Part shown: piece after piece, positions 19,431-46,966 of the stretch
Layout: each line of letters starts with the position of its first letter
How positions within the stretch are numbered: the stretch's first letter is position 1
From: an uncultured Actinomycetes bacterium
Lineage (GTDB): Bacteria; Actinomycetota; Thermoleophilia; UBA2241
Length of the DNA stretch: 64,000 bases
Assembly (NCBI GenBank): GCA_963767005.1
Contig: CAVYCN010000018.1
Span: 1 to 64,000, forward strand
Direction: 5' to 3'
Notes under the pieces: model-generated
The model's input: the letters and a program-made list of their open reading frames with translations, nothing else
Databases searched by the model: none
What the model was told of the DNA's origin: nothing
Position numbers and translations under genes: made by a program

Positions 19431-19488
19431 TCCCGATCTCGGCGTGCCGCCGGCGCCGGTCGCGGCGCCCTCGTCGTCTTCCGCGGTG

Positions 19489-27547: not shown

Positions 27548-27790
27548 CGTCACCCGCCGGCCTCCGGCCTCGGCCCCGCATTTCCCCCCGCCTCGGCCCC
27601 CGTGCTCTGCGGCGCTTCGTCGCGGGCCCCCCGCGGGCCTGAGCTGCGGCGATCCGGCTGCCTGTCGACGACCGTATTCGGAACCGCTCTGTCCATTAAT
27701 GCGACTGAATCTGAACAATTCGTCTAGATGTGGTTTCCTTTCGGTCACCTTGCTGGTATCATGACGATGGTAGGAGAGGACGTCACCGGG

Positions 27791-28378: not shown

Positions 28379-28579
28379 GCGACGATGAAACGACGCACCA
28401 ACCCCTTCGCCCCGGCACCGGTCATGGACTACGTGTACCGGCTCTCCTACTTCGGCGTGCCATCGTTCCTGCTCCGCCGCCGCAGCTCCTGACCGCGTGC
28501 GGGCGGCCCGCTTGCGGGCCGCCCGCACGCGTCGCGGCACAGGGGCCGCGGGCCTGCTGCCCGCGACCCCTGTGCCGTT

Positions 28580-29680
28580 TCAGCTCGTCGCGCCGGCGAG
28601 CGACCCGGCGGAGCGCGGCTGCGGCGCCTCGAGCGCGGCCAGCACGGCGTCGCCCATCTCCTCGGTCGTCGAGACGCCATCCAGGTCGGGGGTCCGCACG
28701 ACGCCATCGGCCAGCACCCGTTCGATCGCCCGCATGAGCGCCGCGGCCCAGTCGTCGTGCCCGAGGTGCTCGAGCATCATCGCCGTGCTCCACAGCGAGC
28801 CGATCGGGTTGGCCTTGCCCTGACCGGCGATGTCGGGCGCCGATCCGTGGATCGGCTCGAACATCGACGGAAAGGCACGCTCGGGGTTGAGGTTGGCGCT
28901 CGGCGCGAAGCCCATGCCGCCCATGATCGCCGCGCCCAGATCGGTGAGGATGTCGCCGAACAGGTTCGACGCCACGACGACGCCGAAGCGCCCGGGGTCC
29001 ATCACCATGAACATGGCGGCGGCGTCGACCAGCAGGCGCTCTGTGGCCACCGACGGGTAGTCGGCCGCGACCTCGTCGAAGACCTGGTCCCAGAACACGG
29101 CCGAGTAGTTGAGGGCGTTGCCCTTGCTGATGCTCGTCACCGAGCGGCCCTCACGCGCCGCGAGCTCGAACGCCCAGCGGATGACGCGCTCCGTGCCGTG
29201 GCGCGAGAACACCGCGGTCTGCAGGGCGACCTCGCGCGCGCTGCCCTCGTAGAGGCGAGCGCCGACGCCGGCGTACTCGCCCTCGGTGCCCTCGCGCACG
29301 ACGATCATGTCGATGTCGGCCGCGGTGCGACCGGCGAGCGGCGTCTCGATGCCGGCCAGCAGGCGCACGGGGCGCAGGTTGATGTACTGATCGAAGCCCT
29401 GGCGGATGCGCAGCAGCAGCTCGTGCAGGGTGATGTGGTCCTTCACGAGCGGCGAGCCGATCGCACCGAACAGCAGCGCGTCGTAGGAGCTCAGGATCTC
29501 GAGGCCGTCGGGCGGCATCATCTCGCCCGACCGCAGGTAGGCGGTCGCGCTCCAGGGGAACTCATCGAAGGCGAAGCCGAGCCCCGGGTCGAGCGCGGCC
29601 ATGCGCTCGAGGATCTTGCGCGACTCGCGCACGACCTCGGGTCCGACGCCGTCGCCGGGGATGACCGCTATCCTGTCCAT
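28580..29680 (-). CDS. Tartrate dehydrogenase / D-malate dehydrogenase (decarboxylating), DmlA/TtuC-like
   Basis: IPGDGVGPEV, DHITL...FDQYINLRPVRL, NLFGDILTD and PSMFEPIHGSAPDIAG. Confidence 0.85.
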   Translation of the reverse strand: MDRIAVIPGDGVGPEVVRESRKILERMAALDPGLGFAFDEFPWSATAYLRSGEMMPPDGLEILSSYDALLFGAIGSPLVKDHITLHELLLRIRQGFDQYINLRPVRLLAGIETPLAGRTAADIDMIVVREGTEGEYAGVGARLYEGSAREVALQTAVFSRHGTERVIRWAFELAAREGRSVTSISKGNALNYSAVFWDQVFDEVAADYPSVATERLLVDAAAMFMVMDPGRFGVVVASNLFGDILTDLGAAIMGGMGFAPSANLNPERAFPSMFEPIHGSAPDIAGQGKANPIGSLWSTAMMLEHLGHDDWAAALMRAIERVLADGVVRTPDLDGVSTTEEMGDAVLAALEAPQPRSAGSLAGATS

Positions 29681-29691
29681 GCCTCTCTCCT

Positions 29692-30957
29692 TCACGTCGC
29701 GCCCACTGTCGTGAAGCGCGCGGTCGACTCCTTGAGCGCCTCGATCACCGGCATCGGCTTGCCGGAGAGGAACTGCACCATGGCGCCGCCGGCCGTGCAG
29801 ACGTAGTCGAAACGGTCGCCAAGGCCGAAACGGTTGACGGCGCGCACGCTGTCGCCGCCGCCCAGGGCGCTGAAGCCCTTCGTGCCGGCCATCGCGTACC
29901 ACAGCACCTTGGTGCCGAGCTCTGTCTCGGGCTTCTCGAACACCCCGGCCGGACCGTTGGCAAAGACCGTGCCGCAGGCCGCGATCCAGGCGGCGTAGTC
30001 GGCGATCGTGTGAGCGCCGATGTCGACGATCTGCTCGGCGACCGGCAGATCGGCGACGGCCATCTCGCGGCGCGCCCCGCCGGCAACGACGGCGAGGTCG
30101 CTCGGCAGCACGATCTTCTCGCCGTGCTCGGCGAGGATCGTCTGCGATTCGTCGATGAACGGCTCGAGCTGGCTCTGCCTGATGAAGTCGAGCGAGGGCG
30201 CGCCGACATCGACGCCCGCCGCGACCAGCATGACGTTGGCCACGAGCCCGGCGGTGAGCACCCGGTCGACCATGCCGTCGCGCAGGGCGGCGGCCATCAT
30301 CGGGAAGGCCTCCTGGACCTTGGTGCCGCCCAGCAGGAAGACGCAGGGCCGGGCCGGCGCCGCGCGCAGCCGCGCCAGGTTCTCGTACTCGCGCTCGAAC
30401 AGCCGGCCCATGGCCGACGGCAGGAGCTGCTCGAAGCCGACCAGCGTGGGCTGCGAACGGTGGGCCGCGGCGAAGGCGTCGCAGACGTACAGCTCGGCAA
30501 GCGGCGCGAGCTTGCGCACGACCAGCGTCTTCGCCTGGTCCGCGGGGCTCAGCTTGAGCCTGTTCTCGAACAGCGTGAGCTCCTCGCCGCAGTACCTGAC
30601 GTTGTCGAGCAGCAGCACCTCCCCGTCGCCGAGCGCCCGCACCGCGTCGCGGGCGGCCGGCCCGCAGACGTCGTCGATGAAGGCGATAGGGCGGCCCACG
30701 AGCTCGGTCAGCACCGCGGCGTGCGGCTCGGTCGAGGCGTAGTTGTGGTACTCGAGGTCGCCGCCCTGGTGAGCGAGCAGCACCACCCGAGCGCCGCCCT
30801 CGGCGAGCTCACGCACGGTCGGCGCGCAGCCCCGGATACGGGTCGTGTCGGCGAGACCGCCACGCTCCGGGTCGAGCGGCGAGTTGATGTCGACCCGGCA
30901 GAGCACCGTGCGACCGGCGAGCTCGAGGTCGTCGAGCGTGTTGATGCCGTACTTCAT
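29692..30957 (-). CDS. pgk: Phosphoglycerate kinase, archaeal-type, divergent
   Basis: RVDINSP, DAFAAAHRSQPTLVGF, NGPAGVFE and GGGDS; AHQGG replaces the usual (S/A)HxGR. Confidence 0.85.
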   Translation of the reverse strand: MKYGINTLDDLELAGRTVLCRVDINSPLDPERGGLADTTRIRGCAPTVRELAEGGARVVLLAHQGGDLEYHNYASTEPHAAVLTELVGRPIAFIDDVCGPAARDAVRALGDGEVLLLDNVRYCGEELTLFENRLKLSPADQAKTLVVRKLAPLAELYVCDAFAAAHRSQPTLVGFEQLLPSAMGRLFEREYENLARLRAAPARPCVFLLGGTKVQEAFPMMAAALRDGMVDRVLTAGLVANVMLVAAGVDVGAPSLDFIRQSQLEPFIDESQTILAEHGEKIVLPSDLAVVAGGARREMAVADLPVAEQIVDIGAHTIADYAAWIAACGTVFANGPAGVFEKPETELGTKVLWYAMAGTKGFSALGGGDSVRAVNRFGLGDRFDYVCTAGGAMVQFLSGKPMPVIEALKESTARFTTVGAT

Positions 30958-30985
30958 GGCAGGCTCCCGCGGCCGGGCGGCGGCC

Positions 30986-32026
30986 TCAGACCGCCGTCGC
31001 GACGGCCGCGCTCATGCCGAGGTAGCCGTTGGTCAGACTGACGGCCTCGAGGCGGTCGCTCTGCAGCGACAGGGCGGCCCGTACGGCGTCCATGCTCTCG
31101 GGGATGACGACCGCTTCCTGCGGGATGTTGATCGCGAACATGAACTCGCGGCCGCTCTTGGCGATGGTCTCGTCGAAGACGGCGATCTCGTACATGTCGG
31201 CGCGCTTGTGACCGAGGTCGCGCGCGTAGCGGAACAGCGCCGAGTTGGAGTTGAAGCCGTCCGCGATCTTCACGACGCGGATGCGCGGATGCGCGTCGAA
31301 GAGCTCGAGGGCGCGCTCCTTGGTGATGTCGGCCTTGGTCGTCGCGCACACGTTGATGATGTGGCCGTGCGTGGTCGGCACGTGGACGAGCAGGCCGGTG
31401 GCCTCGATGTGCGGCATGATCGTCATGAGGTCGAGCGCCTGGTGGTTGGGCACCGGCTCGACCTGGGCGACGTCGACGAGGCCGCGATGCGTGTCGCCGG
31501 GGTCGGCCACGCGGCGTACGATCGTGACGATCACGCGCTCCACGCCGACCTCGCGGTCAAGGCAGTCGACGGCCCGGATCAGGCCGGTCGTGTTGCAGCT
31601 CGTGAGCTTCAGGTAGTCCTTGCCGACGCCCTTCTCGTAGTTGGCGTAGCCGTGAAAGAAGACGTCGACGATGTCGTTCTTCTCGCCGCCCTGGAAGACG
31701 GCCTTCACGCCGCGCGCCTGGTAGAGCTCCTTGTTCAGCCGGCCCACGCCGCCGGGCGTCGAGTCGAGCACGATGTCGACCTTGCCGAGCAGGTCGTCGA
31801 GCGTGCCCGACACGGGGATGCCGAGGGCGTCGAAGGCCGCCTTCTGCTCGGCCGCGACGACGTACAGCCGGTAGGGCATGCCGCACTCGTGCAGCGCCCT
31901 GATCGCCAGGGTCGGGGCGACGTCGACGACGCCGGCCAGCTCCATGTCGCCCTGCAGCGCGACGCCGTCGGCCAGGCGCTGGCCGATGACCCCGTAGCCC
32001 ACCACCGCCACGTTCGGCTTGCTCAT
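30986..32026 (-). CDS. Type II (archaeal-type) phosphorylating glyceraldehyde-3-phosphate dehydrogenase
   Basis: GYGVIGQRLADGV, FQGGEK, catalytic SCNTTGL, VRRVADP and QEAVVIPESMDAVRA. Confidence 0.88.
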   Translation of the reverse strand: MSKPNVAVVGYGVIGQRLADGVALQGDMELAGVVDVAPTLAIRALHECGMPYRLYVVAAEQKAAFDALGIPVSGTLDDLLGKVDIVLDSTPGGVGRLNKELYQARGVKAVFQGGEKNDIVDVFFHGYANYEKGVGKDYLKLTSCNTTGLIRAVDCLDREVGVERVIVTIVRRVADPGDTHRGLVDVAQVEPVPNHQALDLMTIMPHIEATGLLVHVPTTHGHIINVCATTKADITKERALELFDAHPRIRVVKIADGFNSNSALFRYARDLGHKRADMYEIAVFDETIAKSGREFMFAINIPQEAVVIPESMDAVRAALSLQSDRLEAVSLTNGYLGMSAAVATAV

Positions 32027-32134
32027 GATCTTCTGCTCCTTGCGCTCGAGTTGCTGCGGTGGACCGTGGCGCGCGCCGGCCGCCCTTGGCGGTCGCGCAT
32101 CGCGGTCCACCCGTCACGGAGGGATTCGCTCATC

Positions 32135-32212
32135 GCCGAGAGGGGGCGGGCCGGCTCAGCGTCTGCACTGCGCACCACCGTCCGCGGGTCCGCCGGCCCG
32201 CCCCCTCTCGGC
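32135..32212. repeat. Perfect 21-bp inverted repeat (36-nt loop) after the aminotransferase gene
   Basis: GCCGAGAGGGGGCGGGCCGGC (32135-32155) pairs with GCCGGCCCGCCCCCTCTCGGC (32192-32212); no U-tract. Confidence 0.75.
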
Positions 32213-32221
32213 CACGTCGTC

Positions 32222-33586
32222 CTAGATGCCGAGCTGCTCTTCGACCACGCCGATCGACTCGTCGAGCACGCGCACGACCTCGTCGATCTGCTCCTTGCTG
32301 ATGATGAACGGCGGCGCCACGGCGTGGCAGTGACCGCCGCCCAGCAGGCGCACGAACACGCCGCGCTTGAAGGCCTCGTCGCGCACCTTGGCGGCCGCGC
32401 CCACCGCCGGCGGGAACCACTCCCTGGTCGCCTTGTCCTGCACGTACTCGATGCCGGCCACGAGGCCCACGCCGCGCACGTCGCCCACGATCGGGTGCTC
32501 GAGCAGCGTCTTCAGACCCGCCTGCATGTAGGCGCCGACCTCGGCGCAGCGCTCGACCAGGTGCTCGCGCTCGACGATCTCGAGGTTGGCGAGGCCGGCC
32601 GCCGAGCAGAGCGGATGGCCGTTGTAGGTGGCGCCGCTCATGAAGGCCTCGCCCGGGCCGCCCAGGAAGGCGTCGTAGACGTGGTCCTTGGCGCCCACCG
32701 CGCCGAGCGGCAGGTAGCCCGACGACAGGCCCTTGGCCAGGGTGATCAGGTCGGGATCGGAGCCGAACTGCTGAAAACCGAACCACGTGCCCGAGCGCCC
32801 GAAGCCGGTGATCACCTCGTCGTTCACCACGAGCACGTCGTTTGCCTTGCAGGTCTCGCAGACCAGCGGCCAGTACTCGGGCGGCGGTGGGATCACGCCG
32901 CCCGTGCCGATCATCGTCTCGCCGAGCATGGTGCCGACGTTCTCGGCGCCGTAGAAGGCGATCTCCTGCTCGACGACCTTGGCGCACTCCATCTTGCAGT
33001 CGTCGCCGTAGGTCTTGTTCCAGGCGCAGCGGTAGCAATAGGGCGCGCCGAGCTTGATGAAGCCGGGCAGCAGCGGCTCGAACTTCTGGCGGTTGACCGA
33101 GAGCCCCTGGGCACTCGTCGAGGTCATCGTGGTGCCGTGGTAGGAGCGGTCGCGGAACAGCACCATGTACTTGGTGCCGTTGCCGCGGTTGCGATGGTAC
33201 TGGCGCGCCATCTTGATGGCGGTCTCGACCGACTCGCCGCCGCCGAGGGTGAAGAACACGTGGTTCAGGTCGCCCGGCATGAGGCTCGCCACCTTGGCGG
33301 CGAGCTTGATCGTGGGCTCGTTCGCGATCTGGAAGATGTGGTAGATCGCGAGCTTGTCCATCTGCGCCTTGATGGCGTCGTAGATCTCGGTGCGTCCGTG
33401 GCCCACGTTGACGGTCCACAGCGACGCGAAGGCGTCGATGTAGGCGTTGCCCTCGGTGTCGTAGACCACGGCGCCTTCGGCGTGGTCCATGATGATCGGC
33501 TTCAGGCCCTGCATCTGCGTGAACGGCGGCCAGAGGTGGCCGAGAAAGTCGTCCTCCAGCCGCGGCGTCTGGCTTACCTCTGTCAT
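32222..33586 (-). CDS. Class III (omega-amine) aminotransferase
   Basis: SLWTVNVGHGR, GGESVETAIK, SYHG, DEVITGFGRSG and TLAKGLSSGY. Confidence 0.92.
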   Translation of the reverse strand: MTEVSQTPRLEDDFLGHLWPPFTQMQGLKPIIMDHAEGAVVYDTEGNAYIDAFASLWTVNVGHGRTEIYDAIKAQMDKLAIYHIFQIANEPTIKLAAKVASLMPGDLNHVFFTLGGGESVETAIKMARQYHRNRGNGTKYMVLFRDRSYHGTTMTSTSAQGLSVNRQKFEPLLPGFIKLGAPYCYRCAWNKTYGDDCKMECAKVVEQEIAFYGAENVGTMLGETMIGTGGVIPPPPEYWPLVCETCKANDVLVVNDEVITGFGRSGTWFGFQQFGSDPDLITLAKGLSSGYLPLGAVGAKDHVYDAFLGGPGEAFMSGATYNGHPLCSAAGLANLEIVEREHLVERCAEVGAYMQAGLKTLLEHPIVGDVRGVGLVAGIEYVQDKATREWFPPAVGAAAKVRDEAFKRGVFVRLLGGGHCHAVAPPFIISKEQIDEVVRVLDESIGVVEEQLGI

Positions 33587-33618: not shown

Positions 33619-34254
33619 TCAGCGGACGAGCGCCTTGGCGAGATCGACGGCCGCCGCCGCGTTGGCGCCGTAGCCGTCGGCCCCTACCTCATCGACGAAC
33701 GCCTGCGTGACGGGCGCCCCGCCGCAGACCACCTTGACGCTGTCGCGCAGGCCCTCGGCCTGGAGCAGCTTCACCGTGTCGCCCATCTTCGGGATGGTCG
33801 TCGTCAGCAGGCCGCTCATGCCGATGAGGTCGGGCTTGTACTCCTGCACGGCCGCGACGAACTGGGCCGGCGTGATCCCGGTGCCCAGATTGTGCACGGT
33901 GAAGCCGGCCCCCTCGAGCATCATGGCTACGAGGTTCTTGCCGATGTCGTGCACGTCGCCCTCGACCGTGCCGATCACGATCGTGGCGACGGCGCCGCTG
34001 TCGCCCTCGGCAAGGCGCGGCTTGAGGATATCGAGGGCGCCCTGCATGGTGCGCGCGCTGAGCAGAACCTCGGGGATGAACGACTCGCCGGCGCGCATGC
34101 GCTGCCCGACGACGTCCATCCCGGGCAGCAGGCCGCCGTCCAGGATCTCACGGGCGCCGACCCCCTGCTCGAGCAGTTGCCGCGTCAGCTCCTTCGCGCG
34201 CTCGCCGTCACCGGCGATGACCGCCTCTTTCACGTTCTCGTAGGCATCCGCCAT
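33619..34254 (-). CDS. Methyltransferase cognate corrinoid protein (MttC/MtbC-like)
   Basis: FIPEVLLSA cap domain; B12-binding GDVHDIGKNLV, SGLLTTT and GGAP motifs. Confidence 0.93.
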   Translation of the reverse strand: MADAYENVKEAVIAGDGERAKELTRQLLEQGVGAREILDGGLLPGMDVVGQRMRAGESFIPEVLLSARTMQGALDILKPRLAEGDSGAVATIVIGTVEGDVHDIGKNLVAMMLEGAGFTVHNLGTGITPAQFVAAVQEYKPDLIGMSGLLTTTIPKMGDTVKLLQAEGLRDSVKVVCGGAPVTQAFVDEVGADGYGANAAAAVDLAKALVR

Positions 34255-34354: not shown

Positions 34355-35842
34355 CTAGAAGGTCACCGCGGTCGCCTCGACGCCGAGCTCCTTCTCGGTC
34401 TCCTCGACGATCGCGCGCAGGCGCTCGAGCACCCCGGCCGGCAGCGGCGCCGGCTCGTGCGTGGCGAGCAGCCGGCGCGCCTCGGCCGTGGCGCTCGCAT
34501 ACAGGTCGGCGCCGCCGGCGGCGGCCCAGTCGTCGCGTACACGCCGGTCGATCAGCCTCGCCTGCGACTGCGAGCGCATGTGCTTGTACGTACTGTCGAG
34601 GCTCAGGAAGTCGCCCTGCGAGCCGACCTCGTGGATATCGTCGATCATCAGCAGCTCGTCGGTCACCGGGATGCCGCCGATCGTGAACTTGATGAGCCGC
34701 GCGAACTCGCAATCCATGAGCAGCTGACCGTAGTCGAAGGTGACGCCTGACTCGAGCATCCCCAGGCCGTAGATCAGGTTGGCCCCTGCCAACGCTGGAA
34801 GCAGGCCCGTGAGAGTCTTCTCGTGACCGGACTGCGCGTCACCGAGCTTGGCGTCGCCCTACGCACCGGCGACCCAGCTCGGCAGCAGGTAGAAGCGCGC
34901 GAGCTGGGCCACGGCCGCGTTGATCAGGCCGCACTCGGGGCTGCCGACCGAGGCCGAGGCGAGACGCAGGTCCATGGCCGTCGTCGAGCTGCCGTAGACC
35001 ACCGGCGCGCCGCGCCGAGTGAGCTGGGCCAGGGTGATGCCCGACAGCACCTCGGCGTTGTGGGTGACGAGCGTGCCCGACAGCGAGACCGGCGACGAGG
35101 CGCCCGCCATCGCCATGCTCAGCACGTTCACCGTGCTGCCGCTGCGGGCCGCGCCCATGATGATCTCGCAGCAGTCCTTCACCAGCTTGAGCGGGCTGAC
35201 CGGGCAGGTGATGAACGACACGAGCGGGCGGCGCCGCAGGGCGGCCGCGCCGCCCACGACCGCGGCCGCCATCTCGACGACGCGCTCGAGCAGGTGGCCG
35301 TTGATCGGGCCGATGAAGACGTGCTTGGTCGTGTTGGCGAAGATCGCCTCGGCGTTGTGCAGCGGCACCGCGTCCTGCGGCACGTCGTGCGCGCCGATCG
35401 GGCGCTCGACCACGTCGATCTCGGGCAGCGCGTCGATCAACCGGGTCGCCTCGGCGACGTCGCGCTTGGTCGGCTCGCGCAGCGCGCCGGTCTCGGGGTC
35501 GGTGACCTTGATGCCCTCGCCGAAGTTGGTGAAGCCGACGCGGCCCGGCTCGAGCACGATGTCGTTCTCGGGCACGCGCCCGCAGAGCGTGATGGACGAC
35601 GGCGCGCTGCGCACGGCGTCCTCGACCAGGTGGGCCGGCAGGCGCACGATGCGGGCGTCGCGCTCGACGTCGGCGCCGCCCGCCTCGAAGAGGTCGAGCG
35701 CGGCGTCGTCCTCGACCCACACGCCCGTCCGCCCCAGCACCTCGAGCGTCGCCAGGTGGATGTCCTGGATCTCGTCGTCGGTGAAGACGTTCAGGCTGAG
35801 CCCGCCAGACGCCTTGTGCCCGGCGTGCGGGTTCCTTCTCAT
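34355..35842 (-). CDS. mttB: Pyrrolysine-containing trimethylamine methyltransferase MttB homolog (in-frame TAG at 34859-34861, codon 328; 495 aa)
   Basis: ORF 34859..35842 continues in frame into 34355..34792, reading LPSWVAGA-(TAG)-GDAKLGDAQSGHEKTLTGLLPALAGANLIYGLGMLE, which is the MttB Pyl context. Confidence 0.9.
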
Positions 35843-35971: not shown

Positions 35972-37405
35972 CTAGTGCTCCCGTCCGTGGTCCAGCGCCG
36001 GCTCACGCACCAGGCCGGTCTTGCGCTTGAGCCGTTCCACACAGTTGATCCTGATGTCGAGCAGCTCGGCGATGCGGGCCTTGGCCTCGAGGCCCTTGGC
36101 CACACCCGGCACGGCGGTCACCGTGCCGATGTCGAGCTCCTCGCGCAGGGTGCGCATGAGGGTCGAGTCGGACAGGTCGGACACGCCGACCCCGAGCTTG
36201 TCGGCCACGTATGCCTTCGCCTCGGGGAGCCTCATCTTTCTGAGCTGCATCCTGGCCACCAGATCTCCAGCGGTCTTGATGCCGCCGATCGACGAGGCAA
36301 GCGCGTGCGCCATGCCCATGCCGTTCGGGTCGCCGGTACCCACCTATAACCCGTCGGCGCGGCCGATCTCGACCATCGCCGCGCTGGCTCGCGTGACCAT
36401 GTCGATGGGCGAGACCTCGAACATGGGCACGCCGCCGACGCCGTTGCCGACGTTCGGGTGGATCGGGATCGTCGCCTCGGCGGTGCAGGCCTGCACGAAG
36501 GTCACCGCGCGCGCCACGTTCCAGGCGCACGACTTCTTCGAGTTGTTGTTGACGACCGGCCCGAAGATGGCGGCGCCGGCCTTCTCGACGACCTTCACCT
36601 GCTGGTGCGGCCAGAGGCCGGCCAGGCGCGTGCCGTCGTACTCGAGCTCGCCGTGGAAGCCGAGCACGTTCTCGGCCGCCATGCCGATCTGGACGGCCAT
36701 GTCGGTGGTGCTCGAGATGTGCTCGCAGGCGCGCAGGGTGGCGAGGAACTCGGCGTCGCCGGTCGAGGCCACCGTGTCGTAGTTGATGCCGTCGGCGGCC
36801 ACCTCGACCATGCGCTCGGACAGCCAGATGGTGTCGGCCTGGCAGACCTCGAGCGCCTCCTCCTGCGTGCGCCGTGCCTCGTCGATCTTGCCCAGCGGCA
36901 GCAGGTCGGACGGGTTCTCGAACGAGCCGTCGGGCCGGTAGTAGAGGCCGAGGTTCGGCATGAAGCCGTAGAGCAGCGGCAGGATGGTGATGTGCTGGAG
37001 CAGCTCCATGTGCTCCTGCTCGACCGTAGCGATGAACTTGCAGGGCTTCACGGAGTAGTCGAGGTGACCGACCTCCATCGAGTCGAAGGCGAAGGCGGTC
37101 TCGAACAGGCGGATCGCCTGCTCGCGGCTGATCGGCGCGGCGATGCCGCTCGACAGGCGCGACGAGCAGAGCGTGTTGACCGAGCCGTCCTTGCTCATGA
37201 CCGCCTCGTGGCCCCGCTCCACGCCCCAGATCCGCTGAGGGCTGGCGAACATGTCCTCGAGGTAGTCGAGCTCGTTCTCGCAGAGCGGCGGCATCTTGCC
37301 CCTCGCGGCGGCTGCCTCCGTGCCCTCGACGAGGTCGCGACGCAGGTCGTCACGACTCATCTGCACGGTGGCGCCGTCCCCCATGCGCGTCGTGATGGTG
37401 CTCAC
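35972..37405 (-). CDS. mtbB: Pyrrolysine-containing dimethylamine methyltransferase MtbB homolog (in-frame TAG at 36344-36346, codon 354; 477 aa)
   Basis: N-terminal TRMGDG and [12 protein letters not shown]. It reads [10 protein letters not shown]-(TAG)-VGTGDPNGM...[13 protein letters not shown]...[12 protein letters not shown], matching the MtbB Pyl context. GTG start with a GGAGG RBS. Confidence 0.9.
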
Positions 37406-37580: not shown

Positions 37581-38297
37581 CTAGCCTGCCGCTGCGCCGT
37601 CCCGCGCGGCGAGCCCCCTGAGCTCGGCCATCGAGTTGCGCAGCAGCAGCTCGAGGGCCGAGAGCGGGCGCCGCAGGTCGAAGTGCTCAGGGTCGAGCCC
37701 GGCCTGGATCGACAGGCCGTCGGGGATCGCGGCGATGAGCTCGGCGAGGCCGGTCAGGATCTCGTGCTGGCGGCCGTCAGCGCCCTCGGCGGCGAGGCCC
37801 AGCCACTCGAGGTTCTGGCGATACCACCAGCGATACAGCTCGAACATGCGCTCGCGCAGCTCCGGATGGCGGAACGCGTGCGGCAGGATGTCGAAGAAGC
37901 CGCGGAACGAGTCGGCCCCGACGATCATGCCCTCGATGCCGATCATGGCCGCGTGCAGGCGGTCGTCGGCGCTCACTGTGCGCAGGTCGGCGGCCAGGCG
38001 CAGGCACTCGTCGTGGATGAGGGCGTCGACGACGGCGGCCACCAGGCCGGCCTTGTTGCCGAAGTTGTAGCGGATCGAGGCCTTGTTGACGCCGGCTTCG
38101 GTCGCCACGTTCTCGAGCGTGAGTGCCCCGTAGCCGCGCTTGGCGAGCAGCCGCGACGCCGCTTCGAGGATCTTCTGCGCCGTCTCGGGCAGCGTCGACA
38201 GCGGGTCCTCGAACGGCACCCACTTGCTCGCCTTCTTCGGCGCCGGCGCGGTCCCCCCCGCGCCGGACCTGGTCGTCTGTCGGGCGGCGCCGCTCAT
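37581..38297 (-). CDS. TetR/AcrR family transcriptional regulator
   Basis: HTH ILEAASRLLAKRGYGALTLENVATEAGVNKASIRYNFGNK; ATGA overlap with the upstream methyltransferase. Confidence 0.9.
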   Translation of the reverse strand: MSGAARQTTRSGAGGTAPAPKKASKWVPFEDPLSTLPETAQKILEAASRLLAKRGYGALTLENVATEAGVNKASIRYNFGNKAGLVAAVVDALIHDECLRLAADLRTVSADDRLHAAMIGIEGMIVGADSFRGFFDILPHAFRHPELRERMFELYRWWYRQNLEWLGLAAEGADGRQHEILTGLAELIAAIPDGLSIQAGLDPEHFDLRRPLSALELLLRNSMAELRGLAARDGAAAG

Positions 38298-39742
38298 GAC
38301 GTCGCCGCGATCGCCGCGTCCGTCACGGCGCAGATCTCGCGCAGGGCGGCGAGCTGGTCGTCGCTCAGGTGCGGGGCGCGGCCGGCCCGCGCGGCGAGGA
38401 CCTCCTCGACGCGCGCGACGGCCGCATCGAGCTCGGTCGTGCCCTCGGCGCGCCAGGCGTCGTAAGGCAGACGCGAGGCGACACGCGGCATGAAGTGCAC
38501 ACCGTTCCTGATCGCCTGGCGCGTGTCCTTCTCCTTCAAGAAGTTGCCGCCGATGCCCACGCGCTCCATCATATCGCGGGCGATGGTCGCCGGGCTGATC
38601 TCGATCTCGCCGAGCAGCCGGCGGATCATCGCCACGATCTCGGCATCGACCACGATCTGCGGCAGGTAGAGCGTGTTGACCGAGTCGATCAGGCCCATGC
38701 CACCGCTCAGCAGGTCGGAGCCGGCCGCCACCGTGACGAAGGCCTTGAGCGCCTTCTCGAAGCCGTCCTGCACGCCGAGATGCTTGGCGTCGGTGCCGAG
38801 GCCCGGCGTCGTGACCGGCAGGCCGAGGTCGTGCAGCACCTCGGTGAAGGCCGCGTCGTACAGGGCCCCCTCGAGGGCGCCGTAGCAGATGCTCGTCGAG
38901 CGCATGTCGAGGATGGTGCCGGACGGACCGCAGATCAGGCGCGCGCCGGGCGACAGCACCTGCAGGGCGGCGCAGGCGCCGAGCAGCTCGGCCAGGCCCT
39001 GGACGACCACGCCGGCCAGCGTGGCGGGCGCCGTCGCGCCCGAGATCGGCACGGTGTAGATCTCGATCGGTGTGCCGTGGTCGGCCAGGCGCGCGTGCAC
39101 GTCGAGCAGGCGACCGTCGAGCGACAGCGGCGAGGCCACCGTGAACAGGGTGCTGATCCGGGGCCGCCGGCGAAACTCCTCGAGGCTGCCGCAGAGCACC
39201 TCGGCGATCGCCAGCACGAGCTCGACCTCGCTCGGGCAGTCGACGAAGGTGACGTGCTTGTCGGTCTCGGTGAGGACCGTGTAGTACTCGATCTTCTCGC
39301 GCGCTTCGAGCGCCACGTCGTTGGCCGTCACCGTGGTCCACTGCACGTCGAGCTCGGGCGTCTCGTCGAGCAGGATCGTGGCCTCGCGCAGGTCGCGCAG
39401 GGTCGAGGGGCGGTGCTCGCCGCTACGGTAGTCGAGCGTGAGCGCGGCGCAGCCGGAGGGCGAGAAGCGCGACCTGCCGCCCTCGCGCAGCACGACGTCG
39501 TGCTCGGGCGTGGCGCCGCCCAGCACGATCTCGCGCGGGCACTGCCGGCGCAGCCGATCGACGAGCTCTGCCGGGAACCGCACGACGCCGGTCTCGTCGT
39601 CGACCGCCGCGCCGGCCTCGCGCAGCCGCGCCAGGTGCCGGGTACCGGCCATCCTCAGACCGACCCGCTCGAGCAAGGCGAGCGCCTCCTCGTAGACGAG
39701 GTGCTTCTCGGCGTCGCTCATCCAGGTCGTGCGGGCTTGCAT
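38294..39742 (-). CDS. Non-pyrrolysine MttB-superfamily corrinoid methyltransferase
   Basis: VASPL and SGATAPATLAG; Gly at the Pyl-equivalent site (LPVTTPGL-G-TDAK). Confidence 0.88.
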   Translation of the reverse strand: MQARTTWMSDAEKHLVYEEALALLERVGLRMAGTRHLARLREAGAAVDDETGVVRFPAELVDRLRRQCPREIVLGGATPEHDVVLREGGRSRFSPSGCAALTLDYRSGEHRPSTLRDLREATILLDETPELDVQWTTVTANDVALEAREKIEYYTVLTETDKHVTFVDCPSEVELVLAIAEVLCGSLEEFRRRPRISTLFTVASPLSLDGRLLDVHARLADHGTPIEIYTVPISGATAPATLAGVVVQGLAELLGACAALQVLSPGARLICGPSGTILDMRSTSICYGALEGALYDAAFTEVLHDLGLPVTTPGLGTDAKHLGVQDGFEKALKAFVTVAAGSDLLSGGMGLIDSVNTLYLPQIVVDAEIVAMIRRLLGEIEISPATIARDMMERVGIGGNFLKEKDTRQAIRNGVHFMPRVASRLPYDAWRAEGTTELDAAVARVEEVLAARAGRAPHLSDDQLAALREICAVTDAAIAATS

Positions 39743-39755
39743 GGCTCGTCCTCCG

Positions 39756-41585
39756 TCAGTGCCGCTTGCCGGTCCCCGGACCGTCGCCGCGCCCCGCGGC
39801 CGGGATCACCGGCAGGACCAGGTGCGAAGCGTGGCGGTGGTCGTGCCGGACGGTCTGTCGGGCCGCGCGGCGACGAGCGTCGGTGCCCGCCGGTCGGCCC
39901 GTGTTCAGGTTGCGGTCGTAGCGGCCGAAATCGCTGCTCGAGACCTCGAGCCGCAGGCTGTGTCGCCGGCCGAAGAGGTGACCCGTGGCCGCCATGTCGA
40001 CCGTGAGCCGCAGCACCTCTTCGCCATCGTATCGCGTGGTGTCGCGCTGCTCGAGCGCGCCGAGGCGCGCGATGCCCTCCTGCACGAGCTGGGCGTGGCC
40101 GTCGGGGAACACGTCGACGAGGGCCGCCGTGAAGTCGGTATCGGGCGCCGACGACGCGACGTGCAGCTCGCACGAAAGCGGACCGACGACCTCGAGCTCC
40201 TCGTCGAGCGGCGCCGTCGTGTAGACGAGCACGTCGGGCCGCGTCTCGAGCGGCCGTCGGTCGTCGAGTGCGGTCGCCATGTCCCAGATGCTGCGCGTGA
40301 GCCAGTAGTCGACCGGTCGCTCGGGGTCGTACACGAACGCGTCGGGCGGCTCGTCTCCGGGGGGCTCGGCGCTGAGGCCGCCGCCGACGCCGCCGGCCCG
40401 GCCGTCCCCGCGCAGGTACAGACGCAGCGGCTCGGCGGCCGGCAAAGGCCAGCCGTCGGCCGTGCGCCAGCGGTCGGCGCCGACCACGTAGACCTGCACG
40501 GTCGGATCGTCCTCGACGCCGTTGCGCACGCCCCGCAGCCAGCGCTCGAAGAAGCGCTCCTCGCGGTCGTAGCACCAGGCGTCGCGGTCGACCGGGATGC
40601 GGCCGACGTGCCCGGTCACGAGCGTGCTCAGGCCGTGGTCGGTCGGTCCGAGCACGAGCTGCTGCACCGTCGCCGTGGCGGTGTGCCGGGCGCTCGCCGC
40701 GGTCCAGGCGGCGAGCGAGGCGTCGAGGAACACGTCGTACCAGCCGCTCCAGTGCAGGCCGGGCACGGCGATCGGTGCCCGCGACAGGTCGCGCTCCTGC
40801 CACCACTCGTCGCGACGCGGGTGGTGCACGAGGTCCTTGAAGGCCGGGCTGCAGGTGCCCGCGGCCTCGTCCATCGTCTCGACGGGCAGGTGCCAGGGAT
40901 CGAAGCGAAAGGAGTTGAGCAGCGCCCGGGCGTTCATCTCGTAGGCCCACTCGCCGATGCCGAGCAGCGAGAAAGCGCCGCCGTGGTAGGCCGCCCGATA
41001 GAAGTCGGGCGCGGTGTCGCCGGGCGCCACGCAGCGCAGGTTGGGGTGGCCGCTCGCGGCGACGGCCCACTGCGTGATGCCGTGGTACGACTCGCCGGCC
41101 ATGCCCACGTCGCCGTTGCACCAGGGCTGGGCGGCGACCCAGTCAAGCGTGTCCCAGCCGTCGGCGGCCTCGTGCACGAGCGGCTCCCAGCGCCCGCCCG
41201 AGCCGTACTTGCCGCGCACGTCCTGCACGACGCAGCGGTAGCCCTTCCGCGCCCAGTAGGCGCCGCGGGCGTGCATATAGGGATGGTCGTCGCGGCCGTA
41301 GGGCTGGCGGATGAGCACCACCGGCAGCGGCCCGGCCGCGCCGCTGGGATGGAACACGTGGGCCCGCAACGCGACGCCGTCGCGCATCGGCACGGCGACG
41401 TCGCGCTCCACGCGGTGGCCGGCGAAACGGTCGGGCGTGCGCGTCGGCGTGACCGCACGGGGCACGACGCAGCGCCGGCGGTAGGCCTGGGCGCAGCGGC
41501 GGCCGGACCAGCGCAGCTCGGCCGTCGCTCGCGCCGCCCAGTGTCGCGCGCTCACGCCCGCCGCCTCGATGCCGAGAGCCGCCAC
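39756..41585 (-). CDS. CocE/NonD family serine hydrolase
   Basis: PMRDG, RQPYG, QDVRG, nucleophile GESYHG, GWYD and RYDRNLNTG; start uncertain. Confidence 0.9.
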   Translation of the reverse strand: MAALGIEAAGVSARHWAARATAELRWSGRRCAQAYRRRCVVPRAVTPTRTPDRFAGHRVERDVAVPMRDGVALRAHVFHPSGAAGPLPVVLIRQPYGRDDHPYMHARGAYWARKGYRCVVQDVRGKYGSGGRWEPLVHEAADGWDTLDWVAAQPWCNGDVGMAGESYHGITQWAVAASGHPNLRCVAPGDTAPDFYRAAYHGGAFSLLGIGEWAYEMNARALLNSFRFDPWHLPVETMDEAAGTCSPAFKDLVHHPRRDEWWQERDLSRAPIAVPGLHWSGWYDVFLDASLAAWTAASARHTATATVQQLVLGPTDHGLSTLVTGHVGRIPVDRDAWCYDREERFFERWLRGVRNGVEDDPTVQVYVVGADRWRTADGWPLPAAEPLRLYLRGDGRAGGVGGGLSAEPPGDEPPDAFVYDPERPVDYWLTRSIWDMATALDDRRPLETRPDVLVYTTAPLDEELEVVGPLSCELHVASSAPDTDFTAALVDVFPDGHAQLVQEGIARLGALEQRDTTRYDGEEVLRLTVDMAATGHLFGRRHSLRLEVSSSDFGRYDRNLNTGRPAGTDARRRAARQTVRHDHRHASHLVLPVIPAAGRGDGPGTGKRH

Positions 41586-41591
41586 CCCGCC

Positions 41592-43372
<1,781 letters not shown>

Positions 43373-43376
<4 letters not shown>

Positions 43377-44305
43377 CTCGCACCTGTGTCCCTGTCGATG
43401 CCGATCATCGCCCGTGAGACGCCGTCGGTCACGAGATTGGTGCCGATGGTGAGCAGCGCGATCATCAGAACGGGCACGAACACCGCCCACGGCTGCACGA
43501 TGATGGCGACCCGGTTCTCGTTGATCATGAGGCCCCAGTCGGCGGCCGGCGGCTGCATGCCGAAGCCGAGGAAGCTGAGGGCCGCGATCAGTCCGATCGA
43601 ATAGGTGAGGCGCAGGCCGAACTCGACGAGCAGCGGGCTCGTGATGTTCGGCAGGATCTCACCGACCAGGATCCTGCGGCGCGGCACGCCGAGCGCCTCG
43701 GAGGCGCGCACGAAGTCGCGGCCCACGATCTCGAGCGTGGCGCCGCGGGCGACGCGGGCGATGCGCGGCGCGTGCGTGATCGCCGTCGCCAGGACCAGCA
43801 GCCAGAGCGCGTGACCGAGCACCGAGACGAGCAGCAGGACGAACACGATCTGGGGAAAGGCGAGCAGCACGTCGAGCAGGCGCATGATGACGTCGTCGAC
43901 AGCCGCTCGCGAGTAGCCGGCCAGCAGCCCCAGGCCGACGCCCAGGACCATGGCGAGCACCGTGGCGATCACCGAAAGGCCGATCACCGTGCGACCGCCA
44001 CAGAGCACCCTGCTCAGCACGTCGCGGCCGATGCCGTCGGTGCCGAGCAACGCCTTGGCGGAGGGGCCCGAGTAGTCGGGGGCTATGCCGGTGGCAAACG
44101 GCGAGTGCGGTGCCACGTACGGCCCGATCAGGGCGACGGCGACGATCACCACGACGATGCCGAGGCCGACCCTGGTGCGGCCGAACCTGAGCGAGGCGAC
44201 GAGCATGCCGACCCACTCCCGTCTCCGACGAGTCGGCTGCGCATCGGGCGGCGCCTCGCCGGTGCCGGGGAGAAGCTCCTGGGTGTCTGGCGTGACGGCG
44301 CTCAT
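43373..44305 (-). CDS. ABC transporter permease (DppC/OppC-like)
   Basis: LLGTDGIGRDVLSR, EAA-like loop and LSFLGFG. Confidence 0.92.
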
Positions 44306-45267
44306 CGCAGACCGGTCCTGAGTCGCGGGCTGACGAGGATGGTGAGGATGTCGGCGGCGAGGTTGGCCACGACGTAGACACCGGCGATCAGCAGCGCGAT
44401 CGCCTGGATGACGGGGATGTCGCGGTTGACCACGGCATCGACGAAGCCGGCGCCGATGCCGGGGTAGTTGAAGACCCACTCGACGACCACGACGCCACCG
44501 GCAAGCCAGGCGAGCTGCAGGGCCGAGACCTGGATGGCCGGGATCACCGCGTTGGGCAGGGCGTGCCGCGACATGACGGTGCGCTCGGGCATGCCCTTGA
44601 GACGAGCCATCTGCACGTAGTCGCTCTCGAGCACCTCGATCATCGAGGCGCGCAGGATGCGGCTGATGTACGGCGCCACCGCCAGGACGAGGGTGGCCAC
44701 CGGCAGCACGAGCAGGTTGAGTTGGCTCCAGATCGAGGCGTTCGGGTCGATCCGCGACACCCCCGGCATGACGTGGAGCACGTTGGTGGCCAGGAAGAAG
44801 AGCAGCAGCATGGCGATGACGAACTCGGGCATCGCCGCCAGGGCGAGCGAGCCCACCGAGGTCGTGAGGTCGAACAGCGAGTCGCGCCATAGGGCGGCGA
44901 GCGAGCCGATCAGGATCGAGACCGGGATGCTCACGATGGCCGCGAAGAGCACGAGCAGCGCCGAGTTCGTGACGCGCGATCTCAGGAGCGACGTGACCGA
45001 CACACCCGATGCCGTCGAGGTGCCGAGATTCCCCGAGGCGATGTCCTTGAGCCAGATGCCGTACTGGACGTAGCGCGGCCGGTTCAGGTGGAGCTGCAGG
45101 CGCAGCGCGTTGTACATCGCCTTGTCGGCGGCCTGCTTGCCGAGGATCGCCCGCGCGGGATCGCCCGGCAGCGCCTGCGTCGCGGCGAAGATGACGACCG
45201 AGACCAGGAACAGCGTGAGGACGCCCAGGGCAAGCCGGCGAAGGATGAGTTTCAACAGCGGTGGCAC
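44302..45267 (-). CDS. ABC transporter permease (DppB/OppB-like)
   Basis: LPGDPA, DYVQMARLKG, HALPNA and VEWVFNYPGIG. Confidence 0.92.
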   Translation of the reverse strand: MPPLLKLILRRLALGVLTLFLVSVVIFAATQALPGDPARAILGKQAADKAMYNALRLQLHLNRPRYVQYGIWLKDIASGNLGTSTASGVSVTSLLRSRVTNSALLVLFAAIVSIPVSILIGSLAALWRDSLFDLTTSVGSLALAAMPEFVIAMLLLFFLATNVLHVMPGVSRIDPNASIWSQLNLLVLPVATLVLAVAPYISRILRASMIEVLESDYVQMARLKGMPERTVMSRHALPNAVIPAIQVSALQLAWLAGGVVVVEWVFNYPGIGAGFVDAVVNRDIPVIQAIALLIAGVYVVANLAADILTILVSPRLRTGLR

Positions 45268-45294
45268 GCCGCTCCCCCCTTCGATAGCGGGACC

Positions 45295-45335
45295 GCCCCG
45301 GCGCCCCGGCCCGTGGCGGGCCGGGGCGCCGGGGC
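45295..45335. repeat. 18-bp GC hairpin after the solute-binding protein gene (mRNA stabiliser or attenuator)
   Basis: GCCCCGGCGCCCCGGCCC/GGGCCGGGGCGCCGGGGC. Confidence 0.6.
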
Positions 45336-45355
45336 TCGCGCCCCTTCAGCTTCGA

Positions 45356-46966
45356 TCAGACGAAGTAGAACTTGTTGAAGTGGAAGCTCGAGAGCGGCAC
45401 GCCGCCCTTGTCGGGCACGACGCCGCCGAGCTTGGCGCTGAAGGCGTCGGTCTGGTCGTTGAACGCCCAGACAATGAGGCCGCCCCGCTCCTGCTCGATG
45501 GTCTGCGCCTCGCCGACGAGCTGGTCGCGCGCGGTCTTGTCGCCGGTCTTGAATGCCTGCTGCACGACCTTGAGCCACTGGGCATCCTTCCAGTGGGTCT
45601 CGTTGAACGGTGCGGTCGGCAGCGTGCCCTGGGCGGTCTGAGCCAGGTAGTTGCGGGTGTACCAGAAATCCTGGGCAAAGGGCCAGGTGAGGTACTGGTT
45701 GCCGTAGAAGATGCTGGCGTCGACCTTGTTCACGTCGACCGTGACACCGGCCGCCTTGGCCTGCTGAGCAAAGACCTGGGCGGCGAGGACGGCCGAGCCA
45801 CCGACCGCGTCGGACGTGGTCAGGGTGACCTTGAGGTCGTTGTTGTAGCCCGCCTGGCTGAGCAGCGACTTGGCCTTCTCGATGTCCTGCACGCGCTGCT
45901 GCAGTTGCGGCGTGCCGGGGTCGAACGGCGCGTACATGTCGTTGCCGGCCCAGCCGTAGCTGTTGTAGGCCTGCGAGATCATCGCCTGGCGGTCGATCAT
46001 CAGGCGGAATGCCTGACGTACGCGCACGTCGTTGAAGGGCTTGACGTCCATGCGCATGGTGAAGGGCTGCCAGGCGCCGGTGTGGGCGTCGAGCACCTTC
46101 ATGCCCTGGGCCTGGACGACCTTGACCTGCGAGCTCGGCAGGTCGGAGATCGCGTCGACGTTGCCGCCCAGCAGGGCGTTCACGCGGGCCGTCGGGTCGC
46201 CGAACTCGATGATCGTGAGCTGGTCGACGTGCGGCGCCTCGCCCCAGTACTCCTTGTTGGCCGCGAAGACGATCTGCTGGCCGGGCGAGAAGCTGCTGAG
46301 CTTGAAGGGGCCGGTGCCTATGGGCTGCTTCGGGTTGAAGCTCTGCGGCACGATGGTGTTGCCGTAGACGGCCATCGCCTCGTCGAAGACGGAGTTCGGC
46401 GCGTCGAGGGTGAACTGCACCGTGCTCGCGTCGACCTTCCTGATGCCGCTCGCTTTGAGTGCCGCGAGCTGAGTGGCACCCATCTTCGGGTTCTTGGGGT
46501 CGATGATGCGCTTGTAGCTGTAGACCACGTCGTCGGCCGTCATCGGCGTGCCGTCGTGGAAGACGACGCCGCTGCGCAGCTTGACGGTCCAAACCGTGGC
46601 GTCGGTGTTCGGCGTGACCTCCTCGGCCAGGAGGTTCACCAGCTTGTAGTCCTGGTCCCAGCCGAGCAGCGCGTCGTAGAGCTGGAACGTGATGGCGATC
46701 TCGGGCTCGGTCGTGGCGAGCTGGCCGTCGAGGTGCTCGTTCGCCGAGCCGCCGACGATGCCGATCCGCAGGTTGCCGCCCTGCTTCGGCGTCGCCGAGC
46801 TCGACGCGCTCGAGCCCGAGCTGCTGCTCGTGTTGCTGCCGCACGCGGCGAGCACCGAGGCGAGACTGACGCCGGCCCCCGCAACCAGGGCCCCCTTCAG
46901 CACGTCGCGCCGGGTGTACTTCGCGTCCGTGAAGTTGAGCGGGAACGAACGGTCTGCTCCGTCCAC
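45356..46966 (-). CDS. ABC transporter family-5 solute-binding lipoprotein with Tat signal
   Basis: TRRDVLKG twin-arginine motif and LAAC lipobox; FHDGTPMTADDV, GTGPF and DVRVRQAF. Confidence 0.92.
   Translation of the reverse strand: MDGADRSFPLNFTDAKYTRRDVLKGALVAGAGVSLASVLAACGSNTSSSSGSSASSSATPKQGGNLRIGIVGGSANEHLDGQLATTEPEIAITFQLYDALLGWDQDYKLVNLLAEEVTPNTDATVWTVKLRSGVVFHDGTPMTADDVVYSYKRIIDPKNPKMGATQLAALKASGIRKVDASTVQFTLDAPNSVFDEAMAVYGNTIVPQSFNPKQPIGTGPFKLSSFSPGQQIVFAANKEYWGEAPHVDQLTIIEFGDPTARVNALLGGNVDAISDLPSSQVKVVQAQGMKVLDAHTGAWQPFTMRMDVKPFNDVRVRQAFRLMIDRQAMISQAYNSYGWAGNDMYAPFDPGTPQLQQRVQDIEKAKSLLSQAGYNNDLKVTLTTSDAVGGSAVLAAQVFAQQAKAAGVTVDVNKVDASIFYGNQYLTWPFAQDFWYTRNYLAQTAQGTLPTAPFNETHWKDAQWLKVVQQAFKTGDKTARDQLVGEAQTIEQERGGLIVWAFNDQTDAFSAKLGGVVPDKGGVPLSSFHFNKFYFV

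Follow-up and report, generated by a model that had tools for sequence, protein, structure and literature searches.

A paralogous GAPDH/PGK pair in an amine-catabolic operon of an uncultured actinomycete and its predicted role in D-malate and ATP formation

We analysed a 64,000-nucleotide stretch of DNA, referred to below as the window, from an uncultured Actinomycetes bacterium (GTDB lineage Bacteria; Actinomycetota; Thermoleophilia; UBA2241; GenBank assembly GCA_963767005.1, contig CAVYCN010000018.1, positions 1 to 64,000, forward strand). Its minus strand carried an amine-catabolic operon that ended with a type II glyceraldehyde-3-phosphate dehydrogenase (GAPDH) homolog, an archaeal-type phosphoglycerate kinase (PGK) homolog and a gene of the tartrate dehydrogenase family. 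PGK is regarded as a one-substrate enzyme. The module is real rather than an artefact, and it is a variant of known enzymes whose predicted new substrate is well supported.

The operon and its paralogous enzyme pair

In minus-strand order, the operon consisted of the following genes, in which in-frame TAG codons were likely to encode pyrrolysine (Pyl):

41592..46966, minus strand: peptide/opine-type ATP-binding cassette (ABC) importer with ATPase, two permeases and binding protein (permeases and ATPase assigned by eye)
39756..41585, minus strand: CocE/NonD family hydrolase (an acyl-ester hydrolase role is a guess)
38294..39742, minus strand: MttB-superfamily methyltransferase without TAG (non-Pyl, quaternary-amine type)
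37581..38219, minus strand: TetR-like regulator (by eye; start approximate)
35972..37384, minus strand: MtbB with one in-frame TAG at 36344-36346, likely pyrrolysine
34355..35842, minus strand: MttB with one in-frame TAG at 34859-34861, likely pyrrolysine
33619..34254, minus strand: methyltransferase cognate corrinoid protein, below the cut-offs of named families
32222..33586, minus strand: class III omega-aminotransferase, predicted to be aldehyde-forming
30986..32026, minus strand: type II GAPDH homolog of 346 aa, predicted NAD-linked phosphorylating malic semialdehyde dehydrogenase
29692..30957, minus strand: PGK-fold kinase of 421 aa from a bacterial clade lacking Arg65, predicted D-malate kinase (D-malyl-1-phosphate:ADP phosphotransferase)
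30760..30774, minus strand: codons for PGK residues 62-66, with Gly66 replacing the Arg that binds the 3-phosphate in canonical PGK; a clade-specific insert comes next and includes the invariant Tyr70
28580..29680, minus strand: tartrate dehydrogenase / decarboxylating D-malate dehydrogenase family (TIGR02089, 476.3 versus a cut-off of 470.4; best PDB match 3flk)

The GAPDH and PGK genes were separated by 28 bp, and the PGK and the tartrate-dehydrogenase-family gene by 11 bp. The kinase scored 343.9 bits against PF00162, above the cut-off, and its closest PDB match by sequence was the P. horikoshii protein 2cun (E 5e-80). The AlphaFold2 model of the kinase had a predicted local distance difference test score of 90.9 and the two-domain PGK fold, and 2cun was again its best Foldseek match (template modelling score 0.84, E 1e-41). 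The GAPDH scored above both type II cut-offs (NF003251, 390.9 versus 185; TIGR01546, 299.3 versus 232.9), and its four strong PDB matches were all archaeal (E 5e-74 to 8e-64), with type I enzymes at E 2e-4 or worse. An earlier note on this DNA, made from the letters alone, had thus identified both proteins correctly, and all the motifs that it quoted were present.

The pair was a paralog set beside the canonical glycolytic genes. As the earlier note had suggested checking, a separate canonical gap-pgk-tpi set was found on another contig (C2:536084-538674) of this 3.4 Mb genome, which was 100% complete with 4.87% contamination. Further type I GAPDH matches lay on contigs C3 and C2, triose-phosphate isomerase (TIM) matches on C2 and C11, and enolase on C7; a search of the genome gave no TIM or enolase match on the operon contig, in line with the note's remark that neither tpi nor eno was nearby. 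Homologs at 77-78% carried the NCBI name Thermoleophilia. Three further genes were observed: a second GapA (C3:100979-101998) that began exactly like the C2 copy, an open reading frame (ORF; C2:20617-21906) resembling a divergent type I GAPDH, and a short second TIM-family gene (C11:98989-99690) in a sugar-uptake cluster.

Substrate sites of the two enzymes and the kinase clade

For comparison, 63 loci with PGKs of the same clade were set against 45 control loci whose PGK kept Arg or Lys at the Arg65 position. The loci were sorted by origin and motif, independently of their neighbours, and analysed with our own gene caller and BLAST clusters; one locus (L048) was dropped as it lay on the same contig as L038. 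Site counts were restricted to PGKs of at least 370 aa and GAPDHs of at least 300 aa.

In PGK, the 3-phosphate is bound by Arg65, Arg122, Arg170 and His62, and the 2-hydroxyl by Asp23 and Asn25 (PMC7729029). The window PGK had Asp23, Asn25, Arg40, His63, Arg121 and Arg167 as counterparts of the pig substrate residues Asp23, Asn25, Arg38, His62, Arg122 and Arg170. The nucleotide and catalytic site, made up of a Lys, a Glu, a Gly-Gly-Asp and the terminal Gly-Gly, was represented by Lys213, Glu341, Gly368-Asp369 and Gly390-Gly391. In all 59 clade PGKs, Arg40, His63, Arg121, Arg167 and Gly390-Gly391 were conserved, and so were Asp23 and Asn25 wherever they could be aligned. The Arg65 equivalent, residue 66, was Gly in the window PGK (within the motif AHQGG) and was never basic in the clade (0/59; Asp in 25, Gly in 17 and Ser in 17), whereas all 44 control PGKs were basic there (Arg in 42, Lys in 2). 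The departure at AHQGG that the earlier note had singled out was therefore real. The note had also pointed to CTAGGA, which is indeed present but not unusual and was rejected as a clade marker, since Ala stood at that place in 43 of the 104 readable basic cluster representatives and in 15 of the 44 control PGKs. In addition, Tyr70 and Phe130 were invariant in the clade and lay within inserts that control PGKs lack.

Among 150 cluster representatives, residue 66 was basic in 115, clade-like in 16, otherwise non-basic in 7 and unreadable in 12. In a tree of 125 sequences (a quick LG+G4 search, rooted on two bacterial-type sequences), 65 non-basic rows fell on one branch inside the archaeal-type PGKs with a support of 99 in the Shimodaira-Hasegawa-like approximate likelihood ratio test (SH-aLRT), the sole branch test, and four non-basic rows were placed outside it. 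The kinases of loci L072, L073, L136 and L137 were all non-basic at residue 66, and those of L072 and L073 showed the clade motif. Thus, loss of the Arg65 equivalent was confined to one bacterial clade and was rare among ordinary archaeal-type PGKs, which answered the note's question about phylogeny and the frequency of the substitution. The clade PGK occurred in 19 of the 201 genomes of the host class and in 9 of the 349 genomes of a class sample with a clostridial centre; among the GTDB matches listed, the titles of clade loci named Clostridia, Negativicutes, spirochaetes, Chloroflexi, Desulfovibrionaceae and Acidimicrobiaceae. Flexilinea flocculi (L075) and Clostridium magnum (L074) are members of the clade that have been cultured. 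The sole match in the plasmid collection (39.8%) fell outside the clade. All five other clade genomes that were tested had a second, higher-scoring canonical PGK.

The GAPDH showed a parallel pattern. One anion site of the archaeal enzyme 1CF2 comprises Ser139, Asn141, Arg167, His193 and His194, and a Lys accompanies the use of NADP (PMC12041015). All 52 clade GAPDHs kept the catalytic Ser143-Cys144-Asn145-Thr146 with the base His222 (His219 of 1CF2), as well as Arg171-Arg172 (Arg167/Arg168, the substrate-phosphate site). His195 was also kept, but Gln196 replaced the second anion-site His and Asp35 replaced the NADP-site Lys (2'-phosphate site) in 52/52, while the His-His pair and the Lys were present in all four archaeal structures and both archaeal loci. 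Asp35 points to NAD as the cofactor. Further invariant residues of the clade GAPDHs were His180-Arg181 and His220. As a separate observation, one Dehalococcoidales metagenome-assembled genome had the GAPDH and the clade PGK in a single 761-aa frame without a stop (L069:8951-11236, plus strand); the two genes are either fused there or were misassembled in that one genome.

Malic semialdehyde corresponds to glyceraldehyde 3-phosphate (G3P) in which a carboxylate replaces the phosphate, the configuration of the hydroxyl carbon being unchanged, and this would explain why the catalytic and 2-hydroxyl-binding residues were kept and one phosphate-binding residue was lost in each enzyme. Several points weigh against such a change of substrate. 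With His63, Arg121 and Arg167 in place, most contacts to 3-phosphoglycerate were intact, so this compound may still bind to the clade PGK. The R65Q yeast PGK (1qpg) was among the PDB matches, and this mutant is reportedly impaired, not dead. Moreover, loss of Arg65 could simply weaken the enzyme because this residue also assists domain closure (PMC7729029). The sampled genomes were kin, and many were incomplete.

Alternatively, the two proteins could be archaeal acquisitions that serve the operon as ordinary isoenzymes of glycolysis or gluconeogenesis, with G3P and 3-phosphoglycerate as their substrates. Both pass the family models, databases label all clade members PGK, and relatives with a transketolase gene (see below) would need G3P to be recycled. 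We consider this quite improbable, since the genome has its canonical set, neither tpi nor eno lies near the pair and anion-site residues were lost in both enzymes; it would also leave unexplained the exclusive racemase or dehydrogenase partner and the replacement of iolC that are described next.

Neighbour genes and the predicted product

GAPDH-II accompanied the kinase in 57 of the 63 clade loci, whereas GAPDH was found in 2 of the 45 control loci. A third gene encoded either the racemase LarA (43/63) or a tartrate/D-malate dehydrogenase (7/63, the window included), never both (0/63), and the control loci had neither (0/45 for each). Thus, the window dehydrogenase filled the slot held in most relatives by a malate-racemase-like LarA. 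Loci with the dehydrogenase were found at five separate places of the PGK tree (the window with L029; L037; L056; L066 with L068; L088); therefore, racemase and dehydrogenase were swapped repeatedly. A malic enzyme-like gene was present in 12/63 clade loci. Neither partner was found in L134, whose genome had a LarA beside a second copy of the module.

Among the beta-decarboxylating dehydrogenase models, TIGR02089 was the best for the window enzyme, and a separate LeuB-like gene lay among leu-like genes on contig C6. For the neighbouring LarA proteins, the LarAH6 malate racemase model (NF052593) was the best in 38/38 and was passed in 23/38, and their best PDB match was Mar2 (E 3e-101, versus 4e-65 for lactate racemase). 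Malate racemases are marked by a Gln together with His-Lys (PMC11770544, PMC7583248); the His-Lys motif was present in 29 of the 37 called LarA ORFs, the remainder being partial or divergent. In Table S1 of PMC7583248, PGK stood beside 3 of the 18 group-4 LarA proteins, without comment. This genome's own LarA (C2:44223), a partial call of 295 aa, matched no family at E 1e-100. D-malate is the substrate best common to the two partner families, with tartrate as the second candidate. A lactaldehyde/lactate route through LarA was rejected, as the racemases scored as malate type, and a sulfo-sugar was rejected because recurrent neighbour clusters gave it no support.

Other clade loci suggested a second source of the aldehyde. 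Genes for inositol catabolism (iolB, mostly with iolD/E/G) were found in 13/63 clade loci and transketolase in 15/63. An iolC match above the cut-off was absent from all ten genomes with iolB loci (0/10), whereas three of the 14 control genomes had it. In the 349-genome sample, 17 genomes had iolD: six had a clade PGK without iolC, eight had iolC above the cut-off without a clade PGK, three had neither (one with an iolC-like match below the cut-off) and none had both. This exclusion gave a Fisher p of 0.009, or 0.026 without the centre genome, in genomes that are kin and not independent. By our own stereochemical reasoning, 2-deoxy-5-keto-D-gluconate has the D-threo pattern that transketolase requires, and its cleavage would give (R)-malic semialdehyde. 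Two unrelated feeds, the amine and iolGEDB with transketolase but without iolC, would then converge on one aldehyde. Separately, in L059, L074 and L129 an E1-alpha/E1-beta/E2/E3 complex stood beside GAPDH, PGK and LarA in the place of transketolase, and oxidative cleavage of a ketose acid by this complex might yield the same aldehyde. In L041, L042 and L050, the neighbours of the clade pair were iolN, iolO, transketolase and a Zn dehydrogenase gene (plus UxaE in L041 and L042), suggesting a tartrate-forming subtype.

The assignment to D-malate has evidence against it too. Thirteen of the 63 clade loci had neither LarA nor the dehydrogenase, although several of them were short or at contig ends. 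The window dehydrogenase also scored narrowly above the 3-isopropylmalate dehydrogenase cut-off (395.4 versus 393), and DmlA, of the same type, is a generalist (PMC11353897). Eleven LarA proteins of this genome's family scored 465-484, below the cut-off of 500, and had Tyr-Phe at the Tyr-Lys of Mar2. Mar2-type racemases also epimerise tartrate, if weakly (PMC11770544), and Desguin et al. cautioned that genomic context is not always predictive of the LarA substrate (PMC7583248). Finally, five loci had iolN instead of iolB, which fits tartrate semialdehyde.

The same chemistry could accordingly serve another acid: tartrate semialdehyde or another 2-hydroxy aldehyde-acid would yield tartrate, glycerate or 2-hydroxyglutarate, and ATP would still be made. 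The gene after the kinase is classed under tartrate dehydrogenase, malate racemases have their weak activity on tartrate, loci with iolN, iolO or UxaE and transketolase (L041, L042, L050) would yield a tetruronate, and in one locus genes resembling tartronate semialdehyde reductase and glycerate kinase (by eye) followed LarA (L130:11715-13781). On the other side, this slot is occupied by LarAH6-like racemases in the closest relatives of the window, malic enzyme is found repeatedly in the family (12/63), and no common N-methylated amine is known to us that would transaminate to tartrate semialdehyde; another acid thus appears unlikely for the window. The D-malate-type neighbours instead support the earlier note's proposal of a less anionic substrate such as malic semialdehyde and malate, with the substrate itself and the gain of ATP still predicted.

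Amine feed, proposed pathway and known systems

An aminotransferase was present in 15/63 clade loci, all from this genome's family, in which the feed consisted of a methyltransferase and an omega-transaminase, often with glutamate dehydrogenase; an MttB homolog was found in 13/63. The genome encoded tRNA-Pyl (C3:242986), PylS (C3:236183) and tRNA-Sec, and MttB and MtbB of the operon each had the single TAG at the position typical of their families. A literature search of accessible texts gave no paper on pyrrolysine in the host class. An ortholog of the window Pyl-MtbB at 75% or more was present in 11 of the 15 module-bearing genomes of the family and in 2 of the 20 others, a line that was set after seeing the data, at the gap above a paralog at 71%. 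This co-occurrence links MtbB to the pathway but does not name the substrate.

In Acinetobacter, L-carnitine is converted to malic semialdehyde, D-malate and then pyruvate, the last step by a DmlA-like enzyme (PMC11353897). Since carnitine gives malic semialdehyde there, transamination of (R)-4-amino-3-hydroxybutyrate, the demethylated form of carnitine, would lead to this aldehyde as well. Neither the CntAB oxygenase nor a non-phosphorylating malic semialdehyde dehydrogenase of the aldehyde dehydrogenase (ALDH) type was among the operon genes; the rest of the genome was not searched. The non-Pyl demethylases described so far remove a single methyl, and what becomes of norcarnitine is called unknown (PMC8604678). 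However, the sequence itself does not fix carnitine as the amine. The 3.4 Mb genome had 41 MttB-family matches, of which seven contained one TAG, and eight MtbB matches, and Pyl-type MtbB occurred in 34 of the 36 family genomes, with up to 12 matches each, so that its presence is uninformative at the family level. For the non-Pyl MttB, matches were at 46-62% in module-bearing and other genomes alike, without a clean split. The PDB matches of the methyltransferases were distant MttB and MtgB proteins, and the accessible text of PMC13080624 and PMC13631058 offered no criterion for the substrate of MttB or of the hydrolase.

Next to the module, L029, L031, L032, L033 and L044 had genes for an iron-dependent alcohol dehydrogenase, a CoA-transferase and, in four of them, an HpaB/AbfD-like protein, which fits a parallel branch from gamma-butyrobetaine or gamma-aminobutyrate (GABA) to 4-hydroxybutyrate. 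Such a set around 4-5 sister loci, the resemblance of the transaminase to putrescine/GABA omega-transaminases and the demethylation of gamma-butyrobetaine by MtyB (PMC8604678) would also agree with a route in which gamma-butyrobetaine is turned via GABA into succinic semialdehyde, whose oxidation to succinate would yield ATP. Yet succinate has no 2-hydroxyl, so the racemase and the D-malate dehydrogenase would be left without a substrate, while the 2-hydroxyl binders Asp23 and Asn25 were kept; the inositol loci, moreover, cannot give succinic semialdehyde. We therefore regard this route as very improbable.

We consider it probable that the pair converts (R)-malic semialdehyde through D-malyl-1-phosphate to D-malate, yielding NADH and ATP; with carnitine added as the source, the case for the whole is evenly balanced. 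In the proposed pathway, the ABC importer would bring in an N-methylated amino acid, most likely L-carnitine. The non-Pyl MttB, the Pyl-MttB and the Pyl-MtbB would move its three methyls to the corrinoid protein, from which they would go on to folate (Fhs was present; acetogenesis as the methyl sink was rejected, as no match to the acetyl-CoA synthase CdhC was found). The omega-transaminase would turn 4-amino-3-hydroxybutyrate into malic semialdehyde, whose aldehyde would be attacked by Cys144 of the GAPDH; NAD+ would take the hydride, and phosphate would free D-malyl-1-phosphate. The kinase would hold the 2-hydroxyl through Asp23 and Asn25 and the distal carboxylate through His63, Arg121 and Arg167, in a site carrying one positive charge less than that for a phosphate, and would pass the phosphate to ADP to give ATP and D-malate. 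The dehydrogenase would then act on D-malate to yield pyruvate along with CO2 and NADH, whereas in most relatives the racemase would form L-malate instead, often with malic enzyme.

As GAPDH and PGK chemistry is reversible and the racemase could make D-malate from L-malate, ATP might also be spent on the reduction of D-malate, with the resulting aldehyde used to make 4-amino-3-hydroxybutyrate or carnitine. This direction seems the least probable of all, given that Asp35 points to NAD, an oxidative cofactor, that the neighbours are an importer, demethylases and inositol catabolic genes, and that the decarboxylating dehydrogenase consumes D-malate.

Taken together, we tentatively propose, with less confidence than for the oxidative D-malate route alone, that anaerobes of several phyla share a portable ATP module resembling glycolysis, made up of a natural D-malate kinase and a phosphorylating malic semialdehyde dehydrogenase. 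In this operon, the module would end a complete carnitine pathway free of O2 and trimethylamine, with norcarnitine and N-methyl-4-amino-3-hydroxybutyrate, and not free methylamines, as the substrates of Pyl-MttB and Pyl-MtbB; in other genomes it would end a kinase-free inositol pathway with transketolase replacing iolC/iolJ. If true, this would be a new substrate-level phosphorylation with two natural activities previously only engineered (PMC5481828). The largest LarA group would gain a physiological source of D-malate, anaerobic Clostridia, spirochaetes and Chloroflexi would have an inositol route that bypasses the kinase step, and norcarnitine would have a candidate fate. It would also suggest that the substrates of pyrrolysine methyltransferases extend beyond methylamines to larger molecules. 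All the clade genes are currently annotated as glycolytic.

Other features were observed in and around the operon. A perfect 21-nt inverted repeat with a 36-nt loop (32135-32212) lay between the aminotransferase and GAPDH genes, with an imperfect repeat at 32058-32111, and hairpins were found 3' of the last operon gene (28474-28577). An Lrp/AsnC regulator (27728-28378, plus strand) was convergent with the operon end. The promoter scan gave a single site (47181-47154), no better than chance. At 17991-20616 (minus strand), another non-Pyl MttB lay with a muconate cycloisomerase-like gene of the enolase superfamily; the two are reminiscent of a racemase/demethylase pair of the proline-betaine type, a label that is a guess.

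A literature search, which left subscription papers mostly uncovered, gave no paper on this GAPDH/PGK pair and malate kinase only as an engineered activity on C4 of L-malate. Archaeal enzymes were among the closest known systems. Like archaeal type II GAPDH (1CF2, 2CZC, 2YYY, 1B7G; TIGR01546), the window GAPDH had the Ser-Cys-Asn, the His219 equivalent, the Arg-Arg and the first anion-site His; it differed as a bacterial paralog beside GapA, in the Gln and Asp replacements and in its predicted carboxylate substrate. The kinase shared with archaeal-type PGK (2CUN; PF00162) the fold, the nucleotide site and five of the six substrate residues, but its clade lacked the basic residue at Arg65, had the inserts with Tyr70 and Phe130, and was partnered by a racemase or D-malate dehydrogenase. 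The erythrose-4-phosphate dehydrogenase Epd/GapB is likewise a paralog of GAPDH whose anion sites are altered and whose substrate is not G3P, but it has a type I scaffold, a phosphorylated substrate and no partner PGK paralog (PMC12041015).

At the pathway level, the L-carnitine route of Acinetobacter baumannii resembled our proposal in its proposed intermediates malic semialdehyde and D-malate, in the dehydrogenase family of the last, decarboxylating step and in an operon that also encodes a hydrolase and a transporter. There, however, the CntAB oxygenase frees trimethylamine and a non-phosphorylating ALDH gives no ATP (PMC11353897), whereas corrinoid demethylation, transamination and an acyl-phosphate step, without oxygen or trimethylamine, are predicted for the window. 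MtcB and MtyB of Eubacterium limosum likewise combine a non-Pyl MttB with a corrinoid protein, there on C4 betaines, and can be likened to the window by gene type only; they stop after one methyl (PMC8604678), while the window adds two Pyl enzymes and a module for catabolism of the backbone. Finally, the engineered malyl-P pathway has the two activities predicted here, malate kinase and phosphorylating malate semialdehyde dehydrogenase, neither of which had been reported in nature according to the accessible text of PMC5481828. Those enzymes were derived from aspartate kinase and Asd and act reductively at C4 of L-malate, whereas the window pair is predicted to act oxidatively at C1 of D-malate.

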